DNA from: a plasmid
Reading direction: 5' to 3' (one strand)
DNA length: 64,000 bases
Sequence record: NZ_CP139428.1
Below the pieces are notes generated by a model. The model saw nothing but the letters and a program-made list of their open reading frames with translations. It searched no databases and had not been told where the DNA came from. Each line of letters opens with the position of its first letter. Position 1 is the first letter of the stretch. Shown here in pieces: positions 1-14,456 of this stretch. The position numbers and the translations under genes are program-made.

Positions 1-3
1 GCG

Positions 4-540
4 GTGCCGGCGTTCGTCACGCTGCGTACCCTCAAGCAGCGGCTCAACCCCAGGGTTGGCCGGCCGCCGGCGCTGAAACTCAATGCACCGGGACCGACCG
101 CCCGAACGGCATCCCCGGTCAAACGCACGGTGGCGCTCGAGGACGGGCCCTTTGCGGCGCGGCTGCGCGATCACATCCAAACCTTTACCGAGCACAAGAC
201 CAAACCGATCTGGCCGGTGACCGATGACACTGCGCGCAACTGGTTGAAGAAGGTACTCCGTGAGGCTGATCGTCAGGGCGTGCGGTTCAGCCTGGCGCGC
301 GTCACCCCCCACACATTCCGGCACAGCTTCGCGATGCATCTGTTGTTTCATGGGGTGGCGCCGCTGACGCTGCAGGCCTTGATGGGTCATAAGGATTTTA
401 AATCGACGCAAGTCTACCTGAAGGTGTTCAGTCTCGACACGGTATCAGGCCGGGGTGGCGTGCCGTTCTCGATGGATGTCGGCGTGGCGGCGGAGATGCT
501 GCAGCTGGCCGATAATGGTGTAAAAAAGGTGTTTGATTAG
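4..540 (+). CDS. Tyrosine recombinase / phage-integrase family, C-terminal catalytic part; the 5' end lies outside the window
   Basis: Motifs HTFRHSFAMHLL ... LMGH ... TQVYL, the R-H-R-Y catalytic box region of tyrosine recombinases. The ORF runs from the window edge. Confidence 0.75.
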   Translation: MPAFVTLRTLKQRLNPRVGRPPALKLNAPGPTARTASPVKRTVALEDGPFAARLRDHIQTFTEHKTKPIWPVTDDTARNWLKKVLREADRQGVRFSLARVTPHTFRHSFAMHLLFHGVAPLTLQALMGHKDFKSTQVYLKVFSLDTVSGRGGVPFSMDVGVAAEMLQLADNGVKKVFD

Positions 541-544
541 TACC

Positions 545-680
545 TTTTTGGTGTTATTTAAGTGCTTCTTTTACACTGCTAGTTGGGCGGCATCCATGAT
601 GTAGAGCGTGTTAACTATAGTGTGTTATTTTGGTACTAATTTAGTGTTTATTTGGTGTTTTATAGGTGCTATTTAGGCTC
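545..680. repeat. Iteron-like direct repeats (TTTGGTGTTATTT / GGTACTAATTTAGTG variants); candidate partition or centromere site
   Basis: Several near-identical short direct repeats seen in the sequence. Related copies occur at 1540-1560 and 2520-2560, flanking the parA-like pair. Confidence 0.35.
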
Positions 681-1331
681 CGGTTTGATGTGCTTGGGGG
701 CGGCTTTATAGCGTAGATGACGTGGCAAGACTGCGCCGGCGTACAGGAAAAATAACGTCTTAACTGACACTGGCGATGCAGCCCTATGCCCGATCCCACG
801 CTGCAGCAACAGGGCATCATGGTGATTATAGGCATGAACAGGCAAGCGATCGGCGCCATTCGCCAGCAGCCAAATTGTTCGAGTGATCCCATCGACAAAA
901 TCAAGCGCAGGAACTGGCAAGCCACGCTCTAGAATAAACCGACATGTCGGAGTGGCCAGCGGCACCGGGTTGCCCGCGCCAATGCTAAAGCATCTTTCTG
1001 CTTCGTGAAATTTACGGTCACGTCGCCAGGCGGCCTCATCACCACGGCTGAGTTCAGGCACAATGGAATTCGGCGTGTTACGCCAGGCTGACAGCAACTT
1101 ATCCCTATCGGCTACGACGATGTAATGCTCACTGGTGTCAGAAATCGCCTGCTCCATATAGGCAAATTCACCCTGCCGCAGCGGAATTTTGAATCGGCAA
1201 TAAATACTGTCGTTATACCTGCAGCTGTACACCCCCTCGACCAGGTGTACCGGATAGTCTTTGATGGCAACGTGTTTACCGATTAGATCAGGTGTCATAA
1301 CGGTTCCTTTATTAGGTCGTATTGATGCCAA
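669..1331 (-). CDS. Hypothetical protein; start probably at MTPDLIGKH near 1299
   Basis: Long ORF with ordinary codon usage and no recognisable motif. Confidence 0.35.
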   Translation of the reverse strand: MASIRPNKGTVMTPDLIGKHVAIKDYPVHLVEGVYSCRYNDSIYCRFKIPLRQGEFAYMEQAISDTSEHYIVVADRDKLLSAWRNTPNSIVPELSRGDEAAWRRDRKFHEAERCFSIGAGNPVPLATPTCRFILERGLPVPALDFVDGITRTIWLLANGADRLPVHAYNHHDALLLQRGIGHRAASPVSVKTLFFLYAGAVLPRHLRYKAAPKHIKPEPK

Positions 1332-1565
1332 AACGATACCATTAATATACCGGTTTGACGCCTTTAGTCACGCTGACACAAGCCCTTCCTGGCGTATGTT
1401 ACTGGCGGGCGTTGAAGTCCTGAACGGCAGGTGGGCAATCTGGCAGTGGACGCCATTGCTTGTTTCTGAGGGGGAAGGAAAATACGGGCCAGGAGAAAGG
1501 CCCCAAACTCTTCCGAATCAGATGCAGTGTCATATGATGTTTAAGTGGTGTAATTTTGGTGCCAA

Positions 1566-1592
1566 AAAGGAGCCTTTATGGCTCCTTTTTGG
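1566..1592 (-). terminator. Rho-independent terminator downstream of the parA/RHH operon
   Basis: Hairpin AAAAAGGAGCC-tttat-GGCTCCTTTTT, immediately 3' of the minus-strand RHH gene. Confidence 0.5.
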
Positions 1593-1607
1593 TCTTTCTT
1601 TGATGCC

Positions 1608-1889
1608 CTAATCACCGTGCTCATCATAAAATTTCAATGCATGTCGGATCATATTGAGTTTAGAGCGGTTGGTTTTTTTGCATAACTTCTCCAGCAACTC
1701 ATACTCGTATTGATTGAACGGCACACGGATGGCCTTGTAATCACGCGGTGCTTCACTGTCGGTTTGCTTGAGCGGCGTAACGACATGATCAGCTGCGGCT
1801 GCAAATTCTTCTATACGTTTTTCTACTGCCCCTGGAGAAACGACGGGTTCCCTGCGCTTTACCATGTCATCAGCTCCTTCACCAGACAT
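1608..1889 (-). CDS. Small ParG-like ribbon-helix-helix partner of ParA (centromere-binding protein). Alternative start MVKRREP at 1865.
   Basis: Roughly 85-93 aa, basic N-terminus, directly downstream of and co-oriented with the ParA-like ATPase. This is the arrangement of a type Ib partition system. Confidence 0.5.
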   Translation of the reverse strand: MSGEGADDMVKRREPVVSPGAVEKRIEEFAAAADHVVTPLKQTDSEAPRDYKAIRVPFNQYEYELLEKLCKKTNRSKLNMIRHALKFYDEHGD

Positions 1890-2494
1890 TGAATTTCGGC
1901 TTTGGCTTTCGAATTATCCATTTCGACCACGCCACGTCCTTCGGACATGCAATCCCGGTAAACCTTGCGGTCTCGTACCACCGTGCTCATCAACCCCAAC
2001 TCAGGGAAGTCTTTAAGGTACTCTTTGGCTTCCTGGATCTCGTTGATGACTGGATTGGACGGCGCGAGCGTCAGCATGGCGATCGCCTTCAACTTTGGAT
2101 TGAGATCCTTAGCTTCCGTCATAATTTCTGTCAGCCGTGGCAGCGTATCTAAATCGGGTTGTGAAGGTCTGAATGGAACCAGCAGCACATCGGCTGATGT
2201 CATACCCGTTCTCAGCTCTCGACTGTCACGACCGGCTGTGTCAACAACCACATATTCGTAGCGCTTATCGAGGTCGAGTAGCGTATCGCGAATATTATCG
2301 AATTTCTGAATGCAATGAATAGGTGCTATGCCTTCGATCGCATTGCGGTCTGCAATCCAGTTAGATGCGGTTCCTTGACGGTCAGAGTCGACCAGCATCA
2401 CATCGTGCCCTTGTCGTGACAATTCAGCTGCAATATTGACTGCTGTCGTTGATTTACCGCAACCGCCTTTTTGACTTCCAATTAGTATAATCAT
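1859..2494 (-). CDS. parA: ParA/ParF-family partition ATPase
   Basis: Deviant Walker A KGGCGKST at the N-terminus and overall ParA/Soj architecture, 211 aa. Confidence 0.85.
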   Translation of the reverse strand: MIILIGSQKGGCGKSTTAVNIAAELSRQGHDVMLVDSDRQGTASNWIADRNAIEGIAPIHCIQKFDNIRDTLLDLDKRYEYVVVDTAGRDSRELRTGMTSADVLLVPFRPSQPDLDTLPRLTEIMTEAKDLNPKLKAIAMLTLAPSNPVINEIQEAKEYLKDFPELGLMSTVVRDRKVYRDCMSEGRGVVEMDNSKAKAEIQCLVKELMTW

Positions 2495-2599
2495 AGTGCT
2501 TAATTGGTTCCTTGTTGGCTCCTGTTGGGTATTAATTTAGTACCACTTTGGTGCTCTGTCAATACATTGTAGAACCTTAGTCTTAAGGTATAACCTGTT

Positions 2600-2960
2600 A
2601 CTATGGGCGTGCCCCGCTGGGGACGGCTGTCGTGCTGCGCAGGGAGCCGGCCGGCCGTCTCCCCCCTGCGGGCTTCCATCCTCACGCAACCCCGCTTGCA
2701 GCCGGCGATGCCGGCGCCGCACTCACTGTCCTGCAGCCAGGCTGCAGGACGCTGTTGACGCCCCGCCGGCCGCTGTCGCGCCGTCGTGTCGGGTTGATCC
2801 GTATTCAACCTTCCAGGGCGCTTTAGCCGCAGTCAGTCTTCCCGCCGCAACTGATAACAGCACAACGCCTCGCTTAAACACCAAGGGGTGTATGAACTCC
2901 GCCAAAAACTTTTTCCTCCCTTCGGTCAAAAAAACTTTTTGTCTCCGCCCCTTGGTGCCG
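2600..2960 (+). repeat. Repeat family copy R1: hairpin-rich element plus conserved leader (candidate single-strand promoter, Frpo/ssi-like)
   Basis: Shares core ggctgtcgtgctgcgcaggg ... gccggcgatgccggcgccgc ... cactg and a downstream block caaggggtg ... aaaactttttcc with copies at 6840-7239 and 9595-10029. Contains perfect palindromes GCCGGC-gat-GCCGGC and CCTGCAGCC-agg-CTGCAGG. Confidence 0.6.
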
Positions 2961-3042
2961 CTCTTCGCCGTGCTGAATCAGTTTATTGCGACGGCGAATA
3001 CTCACAGCGGCATCAGTTATCACCCCACGGAGGATTTCAACA

Positions 3043-3332
3043 TGGCTCAACAAAACGTCAACGGCGCGACAACGAAGCCTACAGCAGCATCCGCACAGAC
3101 CAGCAGTGCTCTGACCATACCGCAGGTGTATGACCTGTTTTGCTATGTGAAGGCGGTGTGCGGTCGCTCGACCGGCACCATTGAACCGCCGGTCGTACCG
3201 GCAGAGGCGGAAGAGGTGTTCGCGGACTTTGGGGATTTCGACACCATTTCGGTGTGGACTGTCGGAGGCTGGCCGGTGGCTGCCAGCGATCAGATGACGA
3301 TGACCCACTGGCGCATGAATTCAGGGCAATAA
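3043..3332 (+). CDS. Small hypothetical protein (cassette ORF 1) beginning MAQQNVNG
   Basis: ORF directly after R1 leader. Its N-terminal QNVN codons are shared with ORFs at 7240 and 10030. Confidence 0.4.
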
Positions 3333-3336
3333 AAAA

Positions 3337-3360
3337 GCGGCATCGCTGCCGCTTTCTCAC
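3337..3360 (+). terminator. Rho-independent terminator
   Basis: AAAAAAGCGGCA-tcgct-GCCGCTTT hairpin immediately after the ORF. Confidence 0.5.
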
Positions 3361-3424
3361 CGCCAGCGCGGAAGCGTCCACTTCTGTCGCTGGCTCAACA
3401 GGCAATTATCAACGGAGATACACC

Positions 3425-5476
3425 ATGTCTATGACTGAGTCTAAAGCACCAACCAAGGGCAAGACAACCCGTCCGGCCAAAACCACCAAGAAAAACGCTC
3501 TCGCGGAAAAAATCGAGGCGGCGCTGGCCAAGGCCGTGCGCAAAACCGCCACGCTCGGCCAGCTGGTGCTGACCGACCTGAACGTGCGCAAGAAAAAATC
3601 CTCGCAGACGTCGATCGAGGGGCTGGCCGCCGCCATCCGTTCAGCCGGTCTACTGATGAATCTGGTCGTGTTCGAAATGGACGATGGCCGCTACGGCGTT
3701 GCCGCCGGTGAGCGCCGCACGCTGGCGCTGCGCTGGTTGATGTCACTTGAGAACGACGCCGACAAGACCACCCCGGACGGCATCGTGACCGACGATTACC
3801 CGGTTGAAGTGCTGGTCGTCAGCAAGGCGATGGCGCGTGTGGTGTCGATGATGGAGAACAGCCAGCGCGAGCAGATGCACCCGGCCGATCAAGTCATGGC
3901 GTTCCGCGACCTGTCGGCAGACGGGCAAACCCCGGCACAGATCGGCGATCTGCTGGGGTTCAGCACGCGCCACGTTCAGCGATGCCTGCGTCTGGCGACG
4001 ATGGCGCCGGTGCTGCTCGACGCGCTGGCCGACGACCAGATCACCCTCGACCAGCTGCAGGCGTTGTCGGCCACCGAAGATCATCAACGTCAGTGTGACG
4101 TGTGGGAAAACGCGCACGGCTGGGCGGCCGCGCCGCAGCACCTGCGCGAGGCGGTGCTGAAAGGTGAAGTCTCGGCCAAAGACAACAGCCAGCTGGCGTT
4201 CGTCGGGCGCGAGATCTACGAGGCGGCGGGCGGCACCTTCAAATTCGACCTGTTTACCGACGAAGGCTTTTTGACCGAACCGGCGATGCTGGAGCGTCTT
4301 GCCCGTGAAAAGCTGCACGCGCTGGCGCAGCAGGTGGCCGAGAACGAGGGCTGGAGCTGGGCGGAAGGGCGCATTTCGGCCATTAAAACGTGGGGGGAGG
4401 ATGCGGAGATTTACCGCGAGCTGGCCGAACCTCAGCCGGAATTTACCGCTGACGAACAGGCCGAGATCGCCCGTCTGAAAGCGCGGTTCAGTGAGCTGGA
4501 AGCGGCATTCGAGGCGGCGGATGCCGATACCGATACCCACGCGCTGAACGTCGAAAGCGACGCTGTCGAAGCCGATATTGCGCGGTTGACCGCACAGGCG
4601 ATCATCCGTGCATGGCCGCAGGCGATGCGCAGCAGCGGCGGGGTAGTGGCGTCCCTGCGTAACGGGGAGGTGGTTTACCAGCGCGGGATCGTGCTGCGGG
4701 CGAGCGAAGCAACCGACAAGTCCGGGGATGACAACGGCGAGGGCGCAGCGACCACTGAAACGACGGCACCGAAACCCAAGGAGAAAGGGCTGTCGGCAGC
4801 GCTGATCACCAGCCTGTCGGCGGAACGCACACTGGCGGTGATGGGGGCGCTGGTCGAGAACCCGACCGTGGCGCTGGCGCTGCACACCCACACGCTGGTC
4901 GTGAAAGTGTTCGGTTCGCGCTACGCCGGATCGCTGTTCCAAACCAGCCTGACCCCAAAACGGGCGGAGCTGCTGACCAAAGCCCCGACGGCGGAAGGGA
5001 GCCGTGCCGATCGCCAGCTGGGCGAGCTGCACGCGCAGTGGGAGGCGAAATTGCCGCCGGAGTGGAATACCGATTTCACATGGTTGCTGACGTGGGAACA
5101 GGCCGAGGTCGTGGCGCTGCTGGCGTACTGCGTCGGCCTGTCGCTCGATGCCGTGCAGCTGTGGCCTGCGAAGGATGGCAAAGTCGGCGATGCCCTGACG
5201 CCGCTCGAGCACGCGCTGGACTTCACGCTGCGCGACTGGTGGCAACCGACCAAGGCCAATTACTTCGGGCGCATCAGCAAGGAGTTAATGAGCGATGCAC
5301 TACTTGATGCCGGGAAGGTGGCGCAGGCGGCCTCGGTGCTCAAGATGAAAAAGGGCGACGCCGCGCAGCTGGCCGAGGATGAACTGACCGCCAGCGGCTG
5401 GGTGCCGGAGTGCCTGCTGCCGGTGGCCGATGACATCACCACTTTACAGGACGCTGACAACAGCGCCGCCGCCTAA
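3425..5476 (+). CDS. ParB/Srx nuclease-domain protein, large leading-region type
   Basis: N-terminal ParB-like domain with GERRTLA (compare ParB GERRxRA). About 684 aa with an acidic C-terminus. RBS GGAG lies before the ATG at 3425. The provided ORF starts earlier at 3254. Confidence 0.7.
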   Translation: MSMTESKAPTKGKTTRPAKTTKKNALAEKIEAALAKAVRKTATLGQLVLTDLNVRKKKSSQTSIEGLAAAIRSAGLLMNLVVFEMDDGRYGVAAGERRTLALRWLMSLENDADKTTPDGIVTDDYPVEVLVVSKAMARVVSMMENSQREQMHPADQVMAFRDLSADGQTPAQIGDLLGFSTRHVQRCLRLATMAPVLLDALADDQITLDQLQALSATEDHQRQCDVWENAHGWAAAPQHLREAVLKGEVSAKDNSQLAFVGREIYEAAGGTFKFDLFTDEGFLTEPAMLERLAREKLHALAQQVAENEGWSWAEGRISAIKTWGEDAEIYRELAEPQPEFTADEQAEIARLKARFSELEAAFEAADADTDTHALNVESDAVEADIARLTAQAIIRAWPQAMRSSGGVVASLRNGEVVYQRGIVLRASEATDKSGDDNGEGAATTETTAPKPKEKGLSAALITSLSAERTLAVMGALVENPTVALALHTHTLVVKVFGSRYAGSLFQTSLTPKRAELLTKAPTAEGSRADRQLGELHAQWEAKLPPEWNTDFTWLLTWEQAEVVALLAYCVGLSLDAVQLWPAKDGKVGDALTPLEHALDFTLRDWWQPTKANYFGRISKELMSDALLDAGKVAQAASVLKMKKGDAAQLAEDELTASGWVPECLLPVADDITTLQDADNSAAA

Positions 5477-5517
5477 CCGACAGGGAGCTGCCGCCCATCG
5501 GGCGGCAGAAAACAGCG

Positions 5518-5958
5518 ATGAAAAATGCATTCAATCTGGAAACACTGACGGCGATGAGCGCCGACGAACTGGAGCAGTACCGCGATCGGGGCAGAGAGTA
5601 CCGGATGATGCTCAACTGCGCGGTGCTGGGGCAACTGGCGGTGCCGGAAGGCTGGCGCGTGGTGGCGGAAGAGGGCTGTGAGTTCTGCGGGCGCGTGCCG
5701 GTGGTGTGCCGGATAAGCCCGGCAGGGGATGAGGCGACGGCGCTCTATTTGTGCAGTGCGGGCGCGGAGGTGCCGAACTGGTCAATGACGCTGCCGTTTG
5801 ACGGCGGTCAGTCGCTGGCGTGGCTGTACCTGGATGAGTATTACACCCCGGCCACGGTCAACCGGGTGCTGCATACCGTGGCGGGCTATTACCAGCTGGG
5901 GTTCTGGCGGCCGGAAAAGTTGGCGGCGGCGCTGCGGATGGGAGGGCATTGCCTGTGA
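5518..5958 (+). CDS. Hypothetical protein
   Basis: ORF co-oriented with the leading-region genes. No motif recognised. Confidence 0.4.
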   Translation: MKNAFNLETLTAMSADELEQYRDRGREYRMMLNCAVLGQLAVPEGWRVVAEEGCEFCGRVPVVCRISPAGDEATALYLCSAGAEVPNWSMTLPFDGGQSLAWLYLDEYYTPATVNRVLHTVAGYYQLGFWRPEKLAAALRMGGHCL

Positions 5959-6680
5959 TCCCCCATCATCTCGCATTGGTGCCGTGGCACCCGTACCGGC
6001 AGGCCGTCTGGCAAGCCATCGCACAGGTCGAAGCCCGCCGTGAAGCTGGCAGGCGGTTATCCGCCTACCCGTATGCCACGGCGTTTTTCCGCCAGTTAAC
6101 CGGGCGGCTCACAATTTCAGCCAAGGACATCCGCATGATAGACGTGACCTACCGGCCCGGCGATCGCCGCCGCGCCACGCGCAAGGAAGACTATATCGAC
6201 GCGCTCGACATCCTGATTGCCAGCCGGGGGGAGCACTGTTATTCCCCGTTGCCGGGCGACACCCGTGACACGCTGTTCCCGGAAGTGAACCGCCGCCGCC
6301 GACAGCGCTTCGAACACCGGCTGACGATGAAACACACCCGTCAGGCGCGCATCGATGCCACACTCCGGCGGCACAAGCGGCGACGTTACCAGGTGCGGCT
6401 GGCGCAGGCGGAAGTCGAGCTGGCGTTCATCACGCCGGGCGAGCTTGACCGCTGGGTACGGCGTGCGCAGCAGCAGGGACTTGCCGAGGATGATTTGAGC
6501 GGGCTGGTGATGGCGTGGACGGCGCGGTTTCCGTGCCTTGCCGAATTGGATCGTTATCTTTGGGCTGACATGCCGTTCTGGGAGGCGCGTCTTCAGGTCA
6601 GTCTGATCAGCGCGGAGTTGTCCGCTGAAGCGCATATCGATAACGCGGCGCGGCTGCCGAATCGCCTGGTACGCCGCTAA
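5949..6680 (+). CDS. Hypothetical protein, basic and Arg-rich in the centre
   Basis: ORF co-oriented and overlaps the previous stop. Confidence 0.4.
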   Translation: MPVIPHHLALVPWHPYRQAVWQAIAQVEARREAGRRLSAYPYATAFFRQLTGRLTISAKDIRMIDVTYRPGDRRRATRKEDYIDALDILIASRGEHCYSPLPGDTRDTLFPEVNRRRRQRFEHRLTMKHTRQARIDATLRRHKRRRYQVRLAQAEVELAFITPGELDRWVRRAQQQGLAEDDLSGLVMAWTARFPCLAELDRYLWADMPFWEARLQVSLISAELSAEAHIDNAARLPNRLVRR

Positions 6681-6839
6681 ACCCCGGACAACAGGCTGCA
6701 GTGGCTGCGCCACTGCGGCTTGTTGCTCTCTGATCCCTGTGCCAGGCCTGTCTCTGCTTTCAGCAGGGGAGACGGTTCCTGTTGATAGAGTCACGGTGAC
6801 TGTTGGGCATGAATGTGCCGCTTCTAAACGACTTGCCTG

Positions 6840-7239
6840 GCGAAACGATGCGGCGCTGGGCGTCCGGGCGCGCTGTCGTGCTGCGCATGGCGCCGGCAAG
6901 CCGTCGCCCCCCTGCGGGCGTCCATCGCTGACGCGAAATACACGCTTGCAGCCGGCGGTGCCGGCGCCGCTTCTCACTGTTCCTCGCCCTGGCGAGGAAC
7001 GCTAAGGTCGCCACGGCTTATCGCCGCGTCGGGTGTGTTCCTGCTCATCTCACCGGTGGTTATCTCTCATCGGCCCTTACGCGGCCGCTTTTGTAGCACC
7101 GTCACCCGCGTGCCGCAAGGGTGAAATGCACGCCGCAAGCGGCGCCCTTGCGTTCCCCCGTTCGCCGTCGCTACGTCAGCTTTTTTGCCGCGAAAGGTTC
7201 CGACGAGAGATAAATCAACCACCGAAGAGGGATGCCAGC
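6840..7239 (+). repeat. Repeat family copy R2 (candidate single-strand promoter plus leader)
   Basis: Core and block B conserved with R1 and R3. Hairpins GCCGGC-ggt-GCCGGC and CCTCGCC-ctg-GCGAGG. Confidence 0.6.
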
Positions 7240-7704
7240 ATGAACACACAAAACGTCAACGTCAACACCGCCGCTCAGGAACGCTCTGAAAGATATGGGA
7301 AAAGATCCACTGTTACCGGATCGTCTGATGATTGGGATGTAAAAGCCTGCCTGTTCGTTACGCAGGCGATCGGCCGCTTTTCCGTCAAATTCTCGGCGCC
7401 CTGCATCGGGGGCACGGTGAACCTCAATTGCAGCCACATCACCAACGCCTGCAATCCGTTTGATGCCGTAATGCGATTTGCGCGCGAAACCCGCGCGCAG
7501 GGATGCACGGTGTACGCCGTGGAACAGGTCGAGCCTGTGCGCCCCGTTTGCCTGAGCACAACCGGGTATCGCTTTATGCAAAAAGGCTTCATCTGGCTGT
7601 GTCTTGATACCGGCGTTTTCGTCGAGGTGTCAGACGATGGCCGGATGCGGCGCGGGGACGATGGCCGTACGTTGCCTTGCTACGGCACGTTAACCCGCAT
7701 TTAA
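7240..7704 (+). CDS. Hypothetical Cys-rich protein (cassette ORF 2) beginning MNTQNVNVN
   Basis: ORF directly after R2, sharing the ATGAACAC(A/G)CAAAACGTCAAC start with the ORF at 10030. Confidence 0.45.
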   Translation: MNTQNVNVNTAAQERSERYGKRSTVTGSSDDWDVKACLFVTQAIGRFSVKFSAPCIGGTVNLNCSHITNACNPFDAVMRFARETRAQGCTVYAVEQVEPVRPVCLSTTGYRFMQKGFIWLCLDTGVFVEVSDDGRMRRGDDGRTLPCYGTLTRI

Positions 7705-7740
7705 CCGGTGGCAAGCCACCCTAACCGAGGAGAAAAAACG

Positions 7741-8088
7741 ATGTATCAGACCGAAATCAGCACCGAAAACCGCATGGCGTGGGATGCGAGCACCGAGGCC
7801 GCGTACTGGCAACGGCGCGAGCAGCAGGCACGCAGCGACGTGGAAGAAATCACGCTGGCGGCGTTTATGGATGCCATCGCAGTGATGTACCCGAAAGACT
7901 GGGAGGGCGACGCACATAGCGAAACTTTCAAGCTGGCCGAAATGTACTGCGGGGACGTTGCCTACATTTTTGCAAAAGTCGGCGATCGCTATTTTAAGTT
8001 CCGCGATGTGGTGACGTTATCGCACAGCGCCATTCTGGCGCGGATCAATAAGGAGGTGTTAAGCCGGGAGACGCAAGCCCGTAAATGA
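7741..8088 (+). CDS. Hypothetical protein
   Basis: ORF starting MYQTEIS. No motif recognised. Confidence 0.4.
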   Translation: MYQTEISTENRMAWDASTEAAYWQRREQQARSDVEEITLAAFMDAIAVMYPKDWEGDAHSETFKLAEMYCGDVAYIFAKVGDRYFKFRDVVTLSHSAILARINKEVLSRETQARK

Positions 8089-8177
8089 AAAAAGCAGCGT
8101 TTCCGCTGCTTCCTCATGCCGGTTTACCCCTAGGAAAGTTAGACCGGCGTTCTATCAAACTACATGGAGTCTCAACC

Positions 8178-8441
8178 ATGAAATCAACAGACCCAAGCAT
8201 CATGACAGTAACCGACGAGTATGTAAAGCGCCTGCAGGCTGAGTGCGAGCAGGTGAAACGCCAGCGGCGGATCGCGCGCGGCGATATAGCCGCCGCCGAC
8301 GTCGATCCGGATCTACGGTCGTTCGGGCGTCATATCGCCGGATGTGTTCGAAAGGGCAAATCGGTGCGGGTGCCGTCGATGCGGGGCAGTGAGTGGGGGC
8401 ACGTTCTGCGTGCGCTGGAGTTAACGCGGGCGATGGCCTGA
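8178..8441 (+). CDS. Small hypothetical protein
   Basis: ORF starting MKSTDPS, co-oriented with neighbours. Confidence 0.3.
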   Translation: MKSTDPSIMTVTDEYVKRLQAECEQVKRQRRIARGDIAAADVDPDLRSFGRHIAGCVRKGKSVRVPSMRGSEWGHVLRALELTRAMA

Positions 8442-8492
8442 TAACGCGAGCCGCCCCGTATCGGGGCGGCTATTCACTGACCCGGAGGTTAA

Positions 8493-9293
8493 TTGATGTC
8501 ACAACTCTCTTTTGATGCCCTGTTTTCCGTGCCCGTCGATGCGGTGCGCCCGGCGGAAAAGAACGTCAGGGCTGATGCGGTCGAACCTTCAAAACCCGCC
8601 GACCCTGTACCGGGACGGAAGCGGACAATCACCGGCGATGATCCGCGCAAGGCGTTTTTGAGTACGTTTCGTGAAACGGCGCGTTATCACCATCGCTACG
8701 AAGTGTTCAGCGATTTTGTGAAACTGACGGCCTGTGCGCTGGAAAATCTGCTGTTAAAGTCGCCGGACATCGAGGCGGAGTATCTGGCCACCATCCAGCG
8801 CTATGAAAAAGCCGACCAGCAGCGCATGGCGCAGTTGTATTCATGGCTGATCATCGGGCTGGATCAGGACATGGGGGATTTTCTCGGATCGCTGTTTATG
8901 GAGCTGGAGCTGGGCAGCGGCAACATCGGCCAGTTTTTCACGCCGTTCCATCTCTCCGAACTGATGGCGGGACTGGTAGCCGGTGATCGGCTGGCGGCGT
9001 TGGACAATGAGCCGTATATCACGCTGTCCGAACCGACCTGCGGCGCGGGCGGGATGGTGATCGCGTTTGCCAAAGTGATGCTGGCGCGCGGATATAACCC
9101 GCAAACGCAGCTGCGCGCCGACTGCGTGGACATCGATCCGGTGGCGGCGCGGATGTGTTACATCCAGTTGTCGCTGCTGGGTATACCGGCGCGCGTGGTG
9201 ATCGGCAACAGCCTGACACTGACCTATCAGCGCGAGATGTATACGCCGTTCTGGTATCGCGTGACGTCCACGCGCTGGCCGATGTATCGCTAA
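8493..9293 (+). CDS. N6-adenine methyltransferase-like protein of the HsdM family: SAM-binding half only, no catalytic NPPY/F motif
   Basis: Motif X-like GQFFTP, motif I EPTCGAGG, and following DCVDIDPVAARMCYIQLSLLG block resembling HsdM. The ORF ends at 266 aa without motif IV. Confidence 0.6.
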   Translation: MMSQLSFDALFSVPVDAVRPAEKNVRADAVEPSKPADPVPGRKRTITGDDPRKAFLSTFRETARYHHRYEVFSDFVKLTACALENLLLKSPDIEAEYLATIQRYEKADQQRMAQLYSWLIIGLDQDMGDFLGSLFMELELGSGNIGQFFTPFHLSELMAGLVAGDRLAALDNEPYITLSEPTCGAGGMVIAFAKVMLARGYNPQTQLRADCVDIDPVAARMCYIQLSLLGIPARVVIGNSLTLTYQREMYTPFWYRVTSTRWPMYR

Positions 9294-9473
9294 CACCCGA
9301 GGCGGGCAGGGCGATCCTGCCCGATAACGCATGGCAGAAAACGACACGTTGCCGTTACCGGGCGAATTTACCGATCGGGGCGGAAACACGGGGCGTTTGA
9401 TGACGACGCCGTGTGCTACCTGGAAACGGTGGCTACGGTCAGCACCGCGCGGTAAAAGACGAACAGAATGAAA

Positions 9474-9503
9474 GGCCGGTGCCTGCGGCACCGGCCATTC
9501 TTT
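9474..9503 (+). terminator. Rho-independent terminator
   Basis: GGCCGGTGCC-tgc-GGCACCGGCC followed by ATTCTTT. Confidence 0.55.
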
Positions 9504-9594
9504 CCCTTCTCGCACACTGTCAAAAAGACCTGGTGGCGGTTTTTCTACCTCTCCCTCGCCGGCTGCCGGTATTTCTGCGGTGAACCGGGTTTTC

Positions 9595-10029
9595 GCATGA
9601 TGCCTGGGCGTGCCCTTCGGGCCCGGCTGTCGTGCTGCGCAGGGAGCCGGCACGCCGTCTCCCCCCTGGCGGGCTTCCATCCGTCACGCGATGGGCACGC
9701 TTGCAGCCGGCGATGCCGGCGCCGCTTTTCACTGTCCCTCGCCCAGGCGAGGAACGCTAAGGTCGCCCCGGCTTGTCGCCGTGTCGGCCGTGTTCCTCCT
9801 CGCTGCGTTTCCGGTGCGCCATCGGACGGCCGTTCCCCGGCGGAGGGCTGTTCGTAGCACCGTCGCGTCGCCCCGCAAGGGGTGAAATGCACTTCACCGA
9901 AAACTTTTTCCAGGTAAAAACTTTTCGTCTCGCCCCTTGCGTGTCTCCTTACGCCGTTGCTCCGTCGCCCTTTGCCGCCAGGGAACTCACCGAACGATGG
10001 AATAACCACCAGAGAGGAGCAAGAGCAGG
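9595..10029 (+). repeat. Repeat family copy R3 (candidate single-strand promoter plus leader)
   Basis: Most similar to R2. Hairpins GCCGGC-gat-GCCGGC, CCTCGCC-cag-GCGAGG and GGTGAA-atgcac-TTCACC. Confidence 0.6.
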
Positions 10030-10401
10030 ATGAACACGCAAAACGTCAACACCGCCACCAAAGAATCTTCCAAACGATGGGCGGGAAAATACCCCGATGC
10101 GGAAAACATCATGATCCGTCAACTGGCATTGATGGAGGAATTACACGGCGTGTATTTGTCCCCTGACGAACTGGCGCAATCGCTGTATGAAATTTTTAAC
10201 ACGATGACGGATCGGGTGGTGTTTAACGGCGTCGATAACTCGCCGTCCGATAAACCGAAAATTGCGTATGCCGTCGCGCAACATTGGATTAAGGCGCAGC
10301 GTCTGGCCGGTACGTATTTTGGCGAGACCGGCATCGTTGCCTGGGAACATGCGCGTTATCGGCTGCACCTTCAGCTGGCTATCAATCACTCATACCGTTA
10401 A
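10030..10401 (+). CDS. Hypothetical protein (cassette ORF 3) beginning MNTQNVNTA
   Basis: ORF directly after R3. Confidence 0.45.
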   Translation: MNTQNVNTATKESSKRWAGKYPDAENIMIRQLALMEELHGVYLSPDELAQSLYEIFNTMTDRVVFNGVDNSPSDKPKIAYAVAQHWIKAQRLAGTYFGETGIVAWEHARYRLHLQLAINHSYR

Positions 10402-10457
10402 TTCATCGCCGGTCTAAAAAAAGTGTCCGGCATTACTCAAAGAGAAAGGAGAATATC

Positions 10458-11285
10458 ATGCGTCTGACTTCCCGTTTTGGCCGTTATAACGCTATCCGTA
10501 AAGACCGTCCATTAACCAACGACGAATTAATGAACGTGGTGCCGAGTGTGTTTTCAGAAGATAAACACGATTCGCGCAGTGACCGCTATACGTATATTCC
10601 CACCATTACGCTGCTGGATAAATTACGCGAGGAAGGTTTTCAGCCGTTTTATGCCTGCCAGACGCGCGTCCGGGATGAAAGCAAACGCGGCCATACCAAA
10701 CACATGCTGCGGCTGCGTCGGGAAAATATGATTGTCTCCGGCAATAAGGAAGTCCCCGAAATCGTATTATTGAACAGCCACGACGGGAGCAGCAGTTACC
10801 AAATGATCCCGGGGATGTTCCGCTATGTCTGTGCTAACGGAATGGTATTTGGTCAATCGTTCGGTGATGTTCGTGTGCCGCATAAAGGGGATGTGGTCGG
10901 GCAGGTGATTGAGGGCGCCTATGAAGTGCTCGGCATATTTGACCGCGTCGATAATGACCTCGATACCATGAAATGCATTTCACTGACCGAGCGCGACCAG
11001 GAATTATTTGCGCGGGCGGCGTTAAGTTATCGCTACGAGTATGAAGATAAATCCCCGATCACGCCATCGCAAGTTTTGCGTCCGCGTCGGCGTGAAGATT
11101 ACGGCAATGATTTATGGACGACATTCCAGCGCGTTCAGGAAAACATGATTAAAGGCGGATTACCCGGTAAAAGCGTGACCGGTAAAAATACCCGTACTCG
11201 GGCGGTCAACGGTATCGATGGCGATATAAAACTGAACCGTGCGTTATGGCTGATTGCGGATGAATTCAAAAACCGAATGAAGTAA
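10458..11285 (+). CDS. DUF932-family protein (YfjQ/YafZ-like), common in plasmid leading regions and CP4-57-like islands
   Basis: N-terminus MRLTSRFGRYNAIRKDRPLT and length about 275 aa match my memory of the E. coli YfjQ family. Confidence 0.65.
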   Translation: MRLTSRFGRYNAIRKDRPLTNDELMNVVPSVFSEDKHDSRSDRYTYIPTITLLDKLREEGFQPFYACQTRVRDESKRGHTKHMLRLRRENMIVSGNKEVPEIVLLNSHDGSSSYQMIPGMFRYVCANGMVFGQSFGDVRVPHKGDVVGQVIEGAYEVLGIFDRVDNDLDTMKCISLTERDQELFARAALSYRYEYEDKSPITPSQVLRPRRREDYGNDLWTTFQRVQENMIKGGLPGKSVTGKNTRTRAVNGIDGDIKLNRALWLIADEFKNRMK

Positions 11286-11386
11286 CAGGTTGCCCCGGTA
11301 ATGACGCCCATCAATACCGGGGCCGAACACTGCTACAGAACGTACAGTTAATACAACGCGGACAGTATGAAATAACGAGGTGAAAG

Positions 11387-11683
11387 ATGCAAACGGAAAA
11401 TTTACGGGTATGCAGTACGGCACATTTTACATCGGAAGATAACGAGCTGTTAGCGACAATGGCAGGGCAGGCGGGTCTTAGTTCCTGGGTGGTTAACATC
11501 CAGTACGGTTATATTCTGGTGCTGACGGATTATCGCTGGCGGCTGCGGGTATTAAAGTCGCAAGGAGCGTCAAAACCGCTGAGGCGGTTTCTAATTCACC
11601 AGATAAAATATCACCGTACAGGCTACATCCATTTTGATTGTGATGCATCCATTCTTGCCGGCCACGAGGTTTTTGAGTGGTAG
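11387..11683 (+). CDS. Small hypothetical protein
   Basis: ORF only. Confidence 0.3.
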   Translation: MQTENLRVCSTAHFTSEDNELLATMAGQAGLSSWVVNIQYGYILVLTDYRWRLRVLKSQGASKPLRRFLIHQIKYHRTGYIHFDCDASILAGHEVFEW

Positions 11684-11970
11684 CGCGCTGATAAGAGTCG
11701 TCCCCATCGAGGGGGCGTCTCTTATTCTCCCCGCCCGCCCAGCGGGAAATAAATTTCCCGCTCCCGCTGCCCCAAAGGGGCGCCCTGGTTAGCACCCAAA
11801 AAACGGTAACGTTTTTTGGTGGTGTTCGTTAACTTTGCGATCCGCTTACCCACATCTACACAATCGACGTTATTTCACCTTGCCCCGGTGAAATAACCGC
11901 TCCCGTTCGTTTCCCATTAAGGGGAATGGGAAACCTCACTGGCTTTGTCTTATGTGCATATGTGGATAAA

Positions 11971-12441
11971 CTACGGGTTCTGGACGAGGAGGGGTTGCTG
12001 CTTGCTGGCTTTTATCGCCCGGTAGGTCTTTTCGATTTTGCGTGCATACTTATAACGTCGTTGCGCCTGCTTAGGCGAATCTTTAAATCCTGCATTATAA
12101 GCCCCCACTGCCTGCCAGGTCGCTCCCCACTTCTTAAAGGCAATCGCGAGATAATAAGCACCGGTGTAGATGTTCATGCACGGATCTTGCTTCAGGTGAC
12201 GTTCTGAAACCCCAATCGATGAGAGCGAGTTAAAGTGCTGGGAGTCAATTTGCATTAACCCGACGCCGTACCCTGTTGTAGGATTTGGGCCGATAGCCAC
12301 GGGATTAAACCGTGACTCGTTCCATGAAATAGCACGCAGCAGATCCGGGTCGATGTGATAATCACGACCCGCCATGTCAAAACAATCAGCCATAGCGGCC
12401 GTTGAACTGAATAGCATTAACGCTGCGATGAGGTTCTTCAT
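11971..12441 (-). CDS. Lytic transglycosylase of the F orf169 / R1 P19 type, with signal peptide
   Basis: [10 protein letters not shown] ... GLMQI (the E-S ... GLMQ Slt catalytic motif), an N-terminal signal sequence, and a position adjacent to oriT. Confidence 0.8.
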
Positions 12442-12449
12442 GGTATCCT

Positions 12450-12860
12450 TAAAATCCCTAGCCCTGGTGAAAATCTAGCCTTTTCGGGATCTCGAGTCAA
12501 CAAATTCGCGCTCTTTGGGGTAACAGCATCACACCCCACGCAAAATTGTATTTTTCAGAATTATTATTTTAAAACAGTTGGTTACGCGCTTTAAGTTGTT
12601 GTTGTATTTTTACATGGCAAGAGATTAGAGTTGTAAAGGACTCTAACTAGAGTCGTTATTCAAGTTTATACACAACTCTACATAGAGTTATCACTAAATT
12701 TCAAATAGATAAACAGACTCGACCCTAGAGGCGAGTTGTATTTTTTTGCTTTTATAGTTATCATTAGACTCGCAATTAGAGTCGGATTTGATTCGTGCAT
12801 GCCAACTCAAAATACATACAGATTATCTGTCAGCTAATAATGTCATGGAGTAAAAATTAT
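12450..12860 (-). other. Origin of transfer (oriT) of F type. The nic site is on the minus strand near 12530, and transfer proceeds toward lower coordinates.
   Basis: The reverse complement of 12519-12548 reads TTTGCGTGGGGTGT/GATGCT. This matches the F nic consensus TTTGCGTGGGGTGT/GGTGCT. The region is AT-rich and is followed by TraM operators. Confidence 0.7.
12620..12790. promoter_or_regulatory. TraM binding sites: four GACTC-N6-GAGTC inverted repeats upstream of traM
   Basis: GACTCtaactaGAGTC, aACTCtacataGAGTt, GACTCgaccctagagGCGAGT and GACTCgcaattaGAGTC. Confidence 0.55.
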
Positions 12861-13259
12861 ATGGCAAGAATTCAAGCATATGTCAGCAAGGAGGCGGTTG
12901 AAAAGATTCATGCAATTGTTGAACAGCGCCGTCAAGAAGGGGCTGCTGAAACTGAAGTAAGTACATCTAGTGTTATTTCTATGCTTCTTGAACTCGGTCT
13001 CAGAGTCTATGAGGCACAGATGGAAAGAAAAGATGACCCTTTTAATCAGACGGAGTTTAACAAAACTCTTTTGGAAAACGTATTGAAAACTCAACTTGCA
13101 ATGGCAAAGGTTCTTGGTGCAAGTACTCTAGCTCCACATGTTGCAGATAAACCAAAACTTAATAACTATCAGCAGATCATTTCAGAAATAAACGAATCTG
13201 TTAATGATAAGTTAGAGAGATTTTTTATTGGTGTTGATTCAGATAGTACTAACGAATGA
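12861..13259 (+). CDS. traM: TraM relaxosome accessory protein
   Basis: MARIQAYVSKEAVEKIHAIVEQRRQEG ... SMLLELGLRVYEAQMERK aligns closely with F TraM MAKVNLYISNDAYEKINAIIEKRRQEG ... SMLLELGLRVHEAQMERK. Confidence 0.85.
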   Translation: MARIQAYVSKEAVEKIHAIVEQRRQEGAAETEVSTSSVISMLLELGLRVYEAQMERKDDPFNQTEFNKTLLENVLKTQLAMAKVLGASTLAPHVADKPKLNNYQQIISEINESVNDKLERFFIGVDSDSTNE

Positions 13260-13325
13260 ACTATCATCAATAACTTAATTACCTCATGCCTCCTTTGGGA
13301 GTGAGGTAATTATGCTTGCTGATTT

Positions 13326-13688
13326 CTATTTGTTTAGACAGTCAATTATTTCAATTGCTAGTCGTTTGGCATCTTCAACTTTTTTAGCTAATTTTTTCTC
13401 TTCTATTACTGAACTGTAGAATTTATTTTTGGAGGGATTTGTTCTGTTTCTATGCATTTCAAGAAGATCTGTCGCTAAATCATCATCTATCGTATAGAAG
13501 TAATACTCTGGGTAATCCAATAAGTTGGCTATTTTTACTACTAAGCTGAAAGGTGGTTCTGTTCTGCCGACTTCGTAACTTGACAGTCTTGAGCTTGAAT
13601 TGGCCCCTTGTATACCTACAAGTTCAGCTAACTGCTCCTGTGTATAACCACTTGATATTCTGGCATCTTTTAGTCTTTTTGGTATCAT
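13326..13688 (-). CDS. HTH XRE-family transcriptional regulator (Cro/cI-like)
   Basis: GYTQEQLAELVGIQGANSSSRLSSYEVGRTEPP helix-turn-helix. RBS AAGGAGG lies before the ATG at 13688. Divergent from the next regulator. Confidence 0.65.
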   Translation of the reverse strand: MIPKRLKDARISSGYTQEQLAELVGIQGANSSSRLSSYEVGRTEPPFSLVVKIANLLDYPEYYFYTIDDDLATDLLEMHRNRTNPSKNKFYSSVIEEKKLAKKVEDAKRLAIEIIDCLNK

Positions 13689-13859
13689 GGTCCCCTCCTT
13701 TATTATGATTTTACATAGTGTTAGGAGGTGAAAAATCCACATAATCAAGAACTGTTGATAATGTGTAGTTCATGCTGTGCTATGTTTATTTCATCATCTG
13801 ATGTCTTTCATGTATCATCTTTTGACTAACCATCACTATTATTTGATCATGAGTATGCC

Positions 13860-14456
13860 ATGAATAATACCGAGATAATAAAAAAGAATATAAATTACCT
13901 TCTTTCTTCGAGAAAGGAAACACAAGTTTCTTTGAGTGATGGTGCCGGTGTTAATCGAACTACTATATATAAGATCCTTGAAGGTAGGGTAGAGCGCGTT
14001 CAAGAAAATACTCTTCGAAAAGTAGCCGGATTCTTTGGTGTTTCATTTAAAGAAATTCAATCTGTTGATTTACAAGAAAAGGAGTTATCTAATAAGTTAG
14101 TAACCATTGATGGTAACATGAACCCGTTGGCGGTTCCGATTATTAAAGATACAACTATACTCTCAGCAGTAAATGCAAAAATTGGACGGTTAGTTATGTC
14201 GTCACCTATAACTTATTTCTTCGGTGAAGGTCCTAATGTAGTTGGAATACTTCTAACAAAAGAGATAAAAGGATACTATAATAAAGGTGATGTGATCATC
14301 GTTCGCCGTGAGGCTATCATTCATGAGGCAAATGTTCTTGTGGTTACTTCAAGCAAAAGTTTAAAGGTGATTGATGGTAGTTCGGCTCATTTAGTTGCTG
14401 AGGATGTTGTTGGTACAATAATCGAGGAAAGGTATGGAAGCGAATATAAAATATAA
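13860..14456 (+). CDS. LexA/cI-like repressor: N-terminal XRE HTH plus C-terminal S24 peptidase-like domain
   Basis: N-terminal HTH (VNRTTIYKILEG). The C-terminal VMSSP ... KGDVIIVRREAIIHEANVLVVTSSKSLKVI block resembles the LexA/cI autocleavage domain. Confidence 0.55.
   Translation: MNNTEIIKKNINYLLSSRKETQVSLSDGAGVNRTTIYKILEGRVERVQENTLRKVAGFFGVSFKEIQSVDLQEKELSNKLVTIDGNMNPLAVPIIKDTTILSAVNAKIGRLVMSSPITYFFGEGPNVVGILLTKEIKGYYNKGDVIIVRREAIIHEANVLVVTSSKSLKVIDGSSAHLVAEDVVGTIIEERYGSEYKI

Follow-up and report, generated by a model that had tools for sequence, protein, structure and literature searches.

The class 1 elements, Frpo of plasmid F and the ssi elements, are the closest described relatives of the repeats studied here. 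In the recipient cell the transferred strand of such an element folds into a long imperfect hairpin, which, as work on F and pESBL has shown, is used as a promoter by the host RNA polymerase, with transcription towards oriT, and the resulting burst of early expression ends once the DNA is double-stranded; in F, the early expression of ygeA, ssb and yfjA depends on Frpo promoters (PMC9849209, PMC12672017, PMC11541004). The name class 1 for these promoters is that of PMC12672017. Here we analyse three direct repeats in a stretch of plasmid DNA of 64,000 nucleotides (nt) (sequence record NZ_CP139428.1; the whole stretch is referred to as the window), each of which reaches into the first open reading frame (ORF) behind it. 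The element does not stop at the promoter: it includes the Shine-Dalgarno sequence, the ATG and codons 2-4 of that ORF as the covariation-supported base of its stem, and homology goes on to about codon 20. We consider it likely that these are copies of a class 1 single-stranded-DNA (ssDNA) promoter that carry a ribosome site, an ATG and about 20 codons onto unrelated first cistrons. The shared N-terminal residues are called the tag below, and the genes that carry them the cargo. An earlier reading of the window, the original prediction, had noticed the common starts of the three ORFs and had proposed a recombination module of promoter, leader and start onto which different ORFs were grafted.

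Results

Three homologues of the class 1 promoter in a leading region

The window matches F-like Serratia plasmids (MOBF, MPF_F) with 96% identity. All genes between 3042 and 11285 lie on the + strand and are directed to a lytic transglycosylase gene (- strand), oriT and traM, which follow at 11971-13259, and this layout, as in F, identifies the window by homology as the leading region of an F-like Serratia plasmid. Since the leading-region genes point to oriT, the transferred strand (-) is their template, as it is in F. The direct repeats are about 430 nt long each (~2600-3100, 6840-7300 and 9600-10090), with a mean column identity of 72%, and the 3' end of each falls within an ORF (starts at 3042, 7240 and 10030). 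The features of the repeats and of their ORFs, in amino acids (aa) for the proteins, are as follows; hexamers were read by eye from the predicted folds, and outermost pairs are those of the fold of each copy.

Repeat 1, 2600-3100, + strand: left block ~2604-2765; hairpin in the - strand ~2768-3079; apex ~2905-2945 (AAAAACTTTTTCC...AAAAAAACTTTTTG); outermost long-range pair -274/+37 relative to the ATG.
Repeat 2, 6840-7300, + strand: hairpin in the transferred strand ~6953-7273; short GC-rich apex near 7125-7145; outermost pair -287/+33 relative to the ATG; predicted non-template -35 TTGCGG, 17 nt, -10 TACAAA.
Repeat 3, 9600-10090, + strand: hairpin in the transferred strand ~9789-10038; apex 9900-9930; outermost pair -241/+8 relative to the ATG; predicted -35 TTGCGT at 9937-9942, with its left-arm partner at 9873-9878; predicted non-template -10 TACGAA, the reverse complement of 9851-9856.
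ORF1, 3042-3332, + strand: 96 aa, with a diverged variant of the tag, MAQQNVNGATTKPTAAS, and a family A core (QVYDLFC...GWPVAASD); first cistron, followed by a ParB-like gene, psiB and psiA.
Shine-Dalgarno sequence of ORF1, 3029-3034, + strand: GGAGGA, with the ATG 7 nt on; within the basal stem, paired in the ssDNA fold.
ORF2, 7240-7704, + strand: 154 aa, with tag MNTQNVNVNTAAQERSERYG, a linker and a family B core from W-D-V-K-A-C; first cistron, followed by two small ORFs and an N6 DNA methylase gene.
Shine-Dalgarno sequence of ORF2, 7227-7232, + strand: GAGGGA; within the basal stem by sequence and fold.
ORF3, 10030-10401, + strand: 123 aa, with tag MNTQNVNTATKESSKRW and a helical family C core; first cistron, followed by a DUF932 gene and a DUF5983 gene.
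Shine-Dalgarno sequence of ORF3, 10012-10019, + strand: GAGAGGAG; within the basal stem by sequence and folds.

When repeats 1-3 were compared with F (locus L002 of our set) by BLASTN, the left block was found at 8092-8215 and 13480-13604, with E values from 3e-7 to 2e-11. Frpo1 and Frpo2 of F, which precede ygeA and ssb, respectively, can be aligned with the three repeats, beginning at the left block and extending past the start codon, and the apex motif GGGTGAAATGCAC..AAAACTTTTT is common to Frpo1, Frpo2 and the window. In a MAFFT alignment of 28 copies from 10 annotated leading regions, 19 with a start codon (coding copies) and 9 without one, the copies are homologous from the left arm up to about +60 (GAAAGATGGG), where the similarity ends sharply. 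Folded as DNA, the transferred strand gives -120.4, -85.2 and -89.8 kcal/mol for repeats 1, 2 and 3 (z against shuffles of -6.6, -5.5 and -4.7), and the length of the hairpin across the window copies is ~240-310 nt.

The window repeats thus share with Frpo1 and Frpo2 of F and with ssi1-3 of ColIb-P9/pESBL their sequence, the presence of several copies per plasmid, the place in the leading region upstream of psiB and DUF932 operons with the transferred strand as template, and the long imperfect hairpin, whose apex is A/T-rich and whose predicted -35 resembles TTGCGG. They are identified as homologues of Frpo1 and Frpo2, the class 1 ssDNA promoters (also ssp1). A scan of positions 1-14000 against Rfam, with E up to 1, returned no match, and no sigma-70 promoter consensus for double-stranded DNA was seen on the + strand upstream of the three operons (2500-10500). 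In repeats 2 and 3 the non-template arm reads TTGCG(G/T), 16-17 nt, TAC(G/A)AA, while repeat 1 is less clear; from this placement, transcription is predicted to start about 55-60 nt 5' of the ATG.

These assignments change the meaning of the conserved leader that had been described upstream of all three ORFs. The motif, AAAACTTTTT...AAAAACTTTT, does precede ORF1 and ORF3, but before ORF2 there is a shorter GC-rich apex instead. It also lies mostly upstream of the predicted transcription start, so it would not be a transcribed leader; given the homology to Frpo and the hairpin of the transferred strand, it corresponds to the apex and the -35 side of the promoter stem.

The left block lies outside the long stem (2604-2765, 6865-7046 and 9605-9801) and is the most F-like part of the repeats, with 74-76% identity over ~105 nt. 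It holds small GC-rich hairpins, for example GCAGCCGGCGATGCCGGCGCCGC, and could be a priming site or have another single-strand initiation function.

The start of the first gene forms the base of the hairpin

The 12-mer CAAAACGTCAAC occurs three times in the 64 kb, where 0.01 copies are expected and none of 100 shuffles reaches three, and every copy encodes codons 4-7 of ORF1, ORF2 or ORF3. The near-identical starts of the three ORFs, first noticed in the original prediction, are therefore real, with the ATG of ORF1 at 3042 rather than 3043 and a length of 154 rather than 155 aa for ORF2. Their extent had been put at 7-8 codons, whereas ORF2 and ORF3 are alike over ~18-20 codons (MNTQNVN[VN]TAAQERSERYG and MNTQNVNTATKESSKRWAG; repeat family D10).

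Among the 19 coding copies, the Shine-Dalgarno-proximal bases, the ATG and codons 2-4 are paired with the left arm, on the transferred strand, in a basal helix of 12 pairs, in which 98.2% of the alignment cells are paired and 8 pairs have changes on both sides. None of 500 shuffles matches this value, and controls in which the helix was slid along are 29-68% paired. The consensus fold as a whole has 52 pairs, 31 of them with compensatory changes. Codon 2, for instance, is AAC (Asn) or CAC (His) with GTT or GTG, respectively, in the left arm, and ORF1, in which codons 2-3 differ (GCT CAA), has a left arm of its own that mirrors the change. In the minimum-energy folds, long-range pairing extends to at least +23 in 13 of the 19 coding copies and to at least +37 in 8 of the 9 non-coding ones. 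Because homology continues through about codon 20, the first gene behind a copy inherits the same 17-20 N-terminal residues.

Nucleotide rather than peptide conservation of the shared codons

A common N-terminus might equally be kept for the sake of the protein, with the 17-20 residues acting as a degron for short-lived leading proteins or as a targeting or interaction tag. Residues 1-12 (M-N/H-T-Q/R-N-V-N-x-K-T-A-A) are indeed shared by over 200 proteins of many genera, and the leading-region proteins of F are made only transiently (PMC9849209). We nevertheless regard this explanation as improbable. Within codons 2-16, the third positions that are four-fold degenerate (ACA, GTC, ACC and GCC) are no less invariant than the first two positions, of which several vary; synonymous sites are conserved as much as non-synonymous ones. 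Two frames are in use at the 3' end of the tag: a 1-nt indel (TCC-GAAAGATGGG and TCCAGAAAGATGGG), around which the bases are conserved, makes the same nucleotides encode either ...SS-ERW-G/V or ...SS-RKM-GG.

The nucleotides are also kept where there is no start codon. Six plasmids have a segment AACGTCAA..ACCGC lacking the ATG before ssb, and F has one before ygeA as well; it lies 83-94 nt 5' of the real ssb or ygeA start (83 in F), and some of these copies are frameshifted. The copies upstream of ssb belong to F and to Yersinia, Klebsiella, Enterobacter and E. coli plasmids and read AGG TCC CCG CAA AAC GTC AAA ACC GCG GCT, as does the ygeA copy of F. In F the non-coding segment pairs with the left arm as the base of the stem. 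The Frpo copies of F thus have the segment of the first codons only as a non-coding remnant, whereas in the window there is a working ATG in three of three copies.

The proteins themselves also speak against a functional peptide. Homologues of family A, that of ORF1, have a canonical tag, a variant or none, and in members of family B, that of ORF2, the tag is long, short or shifted. The tag is predicted to be disordered: in AlphaFold2 models the predicted local distance difference test (pLDDT) score is below 50 for residues 1-39 of ORF2 and 1-17 of ORF3. A role as Sec/Tat signal peptide was considered and ruled out, as the tag MNTQNVNVKTAAQESSERW, read from its sequence, is without a run of hydrophobic residues that could form the hydrophobic core.

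From the constancy of synonymous sites, the reading in two frames and the copies lacking an ATG, it follows that the shared first codons are a piece of the promoter element that is protein in some copies; their pattern of conservation is that of nucleotides, not of a peptide.

In F (L002 13950-14035 and 8560-8646), the remnant of the tag leaves a mini-ORF of 13 codons (ATG ATG GGG GCT GAA AAC ...). At Frpo1 its TGA overlaps the ATG of ygeA (ATGA), and at Frpo2 it is in frame with the ATG of ssb.

Probable use of the start codons in the window

If the real starts were downstream, the shared codons would be untranslated and the segment 5' untranslated region (UTR) and promoter only, a possibility that the original prediction had itself raised as grounds for abandoning it. 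This is the state of the non-coding copies of F and five other plasmids, with the segment 83-94 nt before the ssb or ygeA start, and ORF3 has an internal Met at residue 28. For the window we consider it very improbable. All three ATGs are preceded by a strong Shine-Dalgarno sequence at 7-10 nt, and the Prokaryotic Genome Annotation Pipeline (PGAP) places the same starts in the 96%-identical plasmid. The first in-frame internal ATG is at residue 84 in ORF1 and 78 in ORF2, and no alternative start in these two ORFs has a Shine-Dalgarno sequence.

A wider survey points in the same direction. We searched proteins with a doubled tag profile (40-aa minimum), and since the matches listed were all of 81 aa or less, contigs of one genome per species were scanned for longer cargo with the DNA pattern ATGMACACNCRRAACGTCAA, which gave 109 matches. 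About 95 of the 109 are in Enterobacterales and lie behind Frpo-like sequence. About 20 of the 109 are in other phyla, with neither an upstream Frpo nor the remainder of the tag, and were set aside as chance. By our count, ~96% of the Frpo-linked matches that have the stop codon of the ORF inside the locus open ORFs of at least 60 aa and run in frame into conserved cargo domains, which would be unexpected were the frame irrelevant. The tag codons of the window are thus probably translated.

Unrelated cargo behind the same start

The three proteins had been described as dissimilar beyond the shared start, with none of a recognised family, and this is borne out. Trimmed of the tag, ORF1-3 show no similarity by BLASTP, and profiles of the tag-trimmed families compared with hhalign give probabilities of 0.1% (A-B), 0.6% (A-C) and 0.1% (B-C). 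The AlphaFold2 model of ORF2 has a beta-rich core (pLDDT 60) and that of ORF3 four helices (pLDDT 80). No match to ORF1-3 was obtained in Pfam, NCBIfam, PHROGs or PADLOC, and structure matches were uninformative.

That profile and structure comparison would disclose remote homologues had been foreseen as the other way in which the proposal might fail, and the cores proved unrelated: descent of ORF1-3 by duplication from one ancestral gene, recognisable at the N-terminus alone, is scarcely credible, for although the three share a start and an upstream region within 7 kb on one strand, their profiles, the predicted folds of ORF2 and ORF3 (beta-rich against four-helix), the sharp end of similarity at about +60 in all copies and the presence of the tag on 28 BLASTP families, some with ParB-like and some with large proteins (300-570 aa), all speak against it.

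These 28 families hold 205 distinct tagged proteins of at least 60 aa, collected from plasmid loci, the genome scan and protein searches across about 100 Enterobacterales genomes. In the genome-locus set alone, the tagged proteins are 62-566 aa long. The families include YgeA and DUF5983-like, DUF3560-like and ParB-like proteins. One and the same 17-residue tag can stand on as many as 6 families, and a single family has up to 22 tag variants; P0143, for example, is a family A core behind a tag of the ORF2 type. This is the pattern expected from exchange of cargo by recombination within a repeated element. Of the earlier proposal, the module of promoter, ribosome site, start and first codons on unrelated cargo thus stands, with a promoter hairpin in the place of the leader. 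Among the other leading-region genes of F that were checked, the gene before the methylase and klcA do not have the start segment.

The nearest counterpart of this arrangement in F is YgeA (95 aa, first gene behind Frpo1), which is required for efficient conjugation (PMC9849209). It occupies the same place as ORF3, as the first cistron before a DUF932 gene (ygeB in F), and its start, MSTRNIHVNTAS, is a shortened tag, while homologues in other plasmids (L005_12034, L009_13512 and L003_12046) have a full-length one. The core of ORF3 is of a different family, without a BLASTP match to YgeA, and the window has no member of the YgeA family.

Three further observations concern tagged genes. A tag variant, MSQQNVNTTASES(K/E)ES, is found at the start of large proteins (192-566 aa), of which one is DUF3560-like and another has a methyltransferase-like region at its C-terminus. 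In Erwinia persicina pEP1 (L006, 1820-3810), a diverged tag, MSQHNVKGATAKPT, is fused straight to the ParB-like gene with no separate ORF1, and the annotation of that gene as two pieces suggests a frameshift. The homologues of ORF1-3 at 3542-3832, 7736-8200 and 10519-10890 of L001 are named 'ribulokinase', 'protein TraE' and 'dehydrogenase' in RefSeq, names that are unsupported by the family searches and look like propagated mis-annotation.

Folding of RNA from the element

An RNA that read through the whole element would hold both arms and is predicted to form the same hairpin, with the ribosome site and the AUG buried (-125.5 kcal/mol). In contrast, RNAs that begin at the predicted start site are A/C-rich, with z values of -0.10, +2.59 and +1.34 for repeats 1, 2 and 3, and are thus no more structured than shuffled sequence; the RNA of repeat 2 is clearly less so, as 200 of 200 shuffles fold at least as well. 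According to these folding models, a highly translatable message may arise only if transcription starts inside the hairpin, and since the site is buried in read-through RNA and the start-site RNA is unstructured, the element may favour the hairpin-initiated message.

Neighbouring features

A terminator-like hairpin, GCGGCATCGCTGCCGC followed by TTTCT, lies at 3337-3357, directly 3' of ORF1 and 5' of the ParB-like gene, and might control how much ORF1 is expressed relative to the genes downstream. A second hairpin, at 9474-9496, separates the methylase operon from repeat 3; it is GC-rich, with 10 perfectly paired bp and runs of T on both strands, and resembles a bidirectional terminator that would shield the third promoter. 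The operon behind repeat 2 ends with a gene (8496-9293) for a protein of 265 aa that matches only positions 23-120 of the 311 of the N6_Mtase profile (E = 2.6e-8). Like M.EcoGIX (PMC7736820), it may be an orphan methylase that acts on incoming DNA.

Discussion

In the mechanism that we propose, the transferred (-) strand would enter the recipient and each copy would fold into its hairpin of ~240-310 nt, to be read as a promoter. The right arm would supply the Shine-Dalgarno sequence, the ATG and codons 2-4, and the first gene behind the copy would in this way receive the common N-terminus. As the element is present in several copies per plasmid and in many plasmids, recombination inside it would exchange the downstream cargo. 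New cargo would either be fused in frame, or the start codon would decay and the segment turn into 5' UTR, as in F. The peptide itself would be a tolerated, disordered passenger, and translation would be limited to mRNA initiated at the promoter, to the exclusion of read-through RNA.

Several points weigh against this reading. Around the start, repeats 2 and 3 are only 61% identical within the window. Both the hexamers (-35 and -10) and the start site come from inspection of predicted folds by eye, and the two candidates for the -10, TACGAA and TACAAA, are weak. Pairing of the left arm past codon 4 is inconsistent, as it is present in the minimum-energy folds of 13 of the 19 coding copies and the consensus fold predicts none; the stem therefore leaves the invariance of AACGTCAA..ACCGCC in coding copies unexplained. 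A conserved pairing partner for this segment was sought in those copies, with inconsistent results. At the amino-acid level, too, residues 1-12 of the tag are well conserved, which leaves a role of the peptide some probability. The 28 cargo families come from single-linkage BLASTP, which may chain families together or split them. Finally, recombination is deduced from patterns: identity around the start is higher within plasmids (0.80) than between them (0.72; p = 0.003), but the difference is modest, the pairs are non-independent and one plasmid dominates them.

The invariant CAAAACGTCAA(n)ACCGC at the foot of the class 1 promoter, or the peptide encoded there, could be a functional site in itself, which we regard as rather unlikely. 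Such a site may serve the hand-over from transcript to primer for the synthesis of the complementary strand, may be bound by a host factor on ssDNA or mRNA, or may encode a common degron. If so, the promoters would act as self-contained cassettes for 'expression and capture', gaining early genes by fusing them in frame, and the tag would provide a signature with which undiscovered genes for establishment or anti-defence could be searched for.

To return to the promoter that carries its own translation start, two known systems offer a comparison. Integron cassettes, by analogy only, likewise combine a fixed expression module with many unrelated, exchangeable and mostly small adaptive ORFs. Unlike integrons, the window system has neither an integrase nor attC, and exchange would use homologous recombination between promoter repeats; moreover, the junction of the module is inside the coding sequence, which makes the cargo an N-terminal fusion. 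In mRNAs of the hok/sok type, long-range pairing of the 5' end hides the ribosome site, and in our element, too, the RNA with both arms is predicted to enclose the Shine-Dalgarno sequence and the AUG in a long helix. Here, unlike in hok/sok-type systems, the translatable RNA would come from another start site within the hairpin and not from processing.

By their homology, the promoters themselves are further members of the known class 1 kind. In the literature searched, which had subscription journals outside its scope and included full text for the tag sequence, no shared N-terminus, no element that extends ~60 nt into the first gene and no start codon in a covariation-supported stem has been described.

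Whether a conjugative plasmid gets through the first minutes after its arrival in a new host is decided by the leading-region genes that are expressed from ssDNA promoters, and these genes are also rich in anti-defence functions. Should the ribosome site, the start codon and about 20 codons belong to the element, then the structure of the promoter and the start of translation are physically coupled. This would also offer a hypothesis for the silence of these genes once the DNA is double-stranded, as read-through RNA would bury the ribosome site. The tag and the hairpin together would form a signature that already marks 28 families of first cistrons, mostly uncharacterised, across Enterobacterales, and these tagged families would be candidates for roles in establishment or anti-defence.

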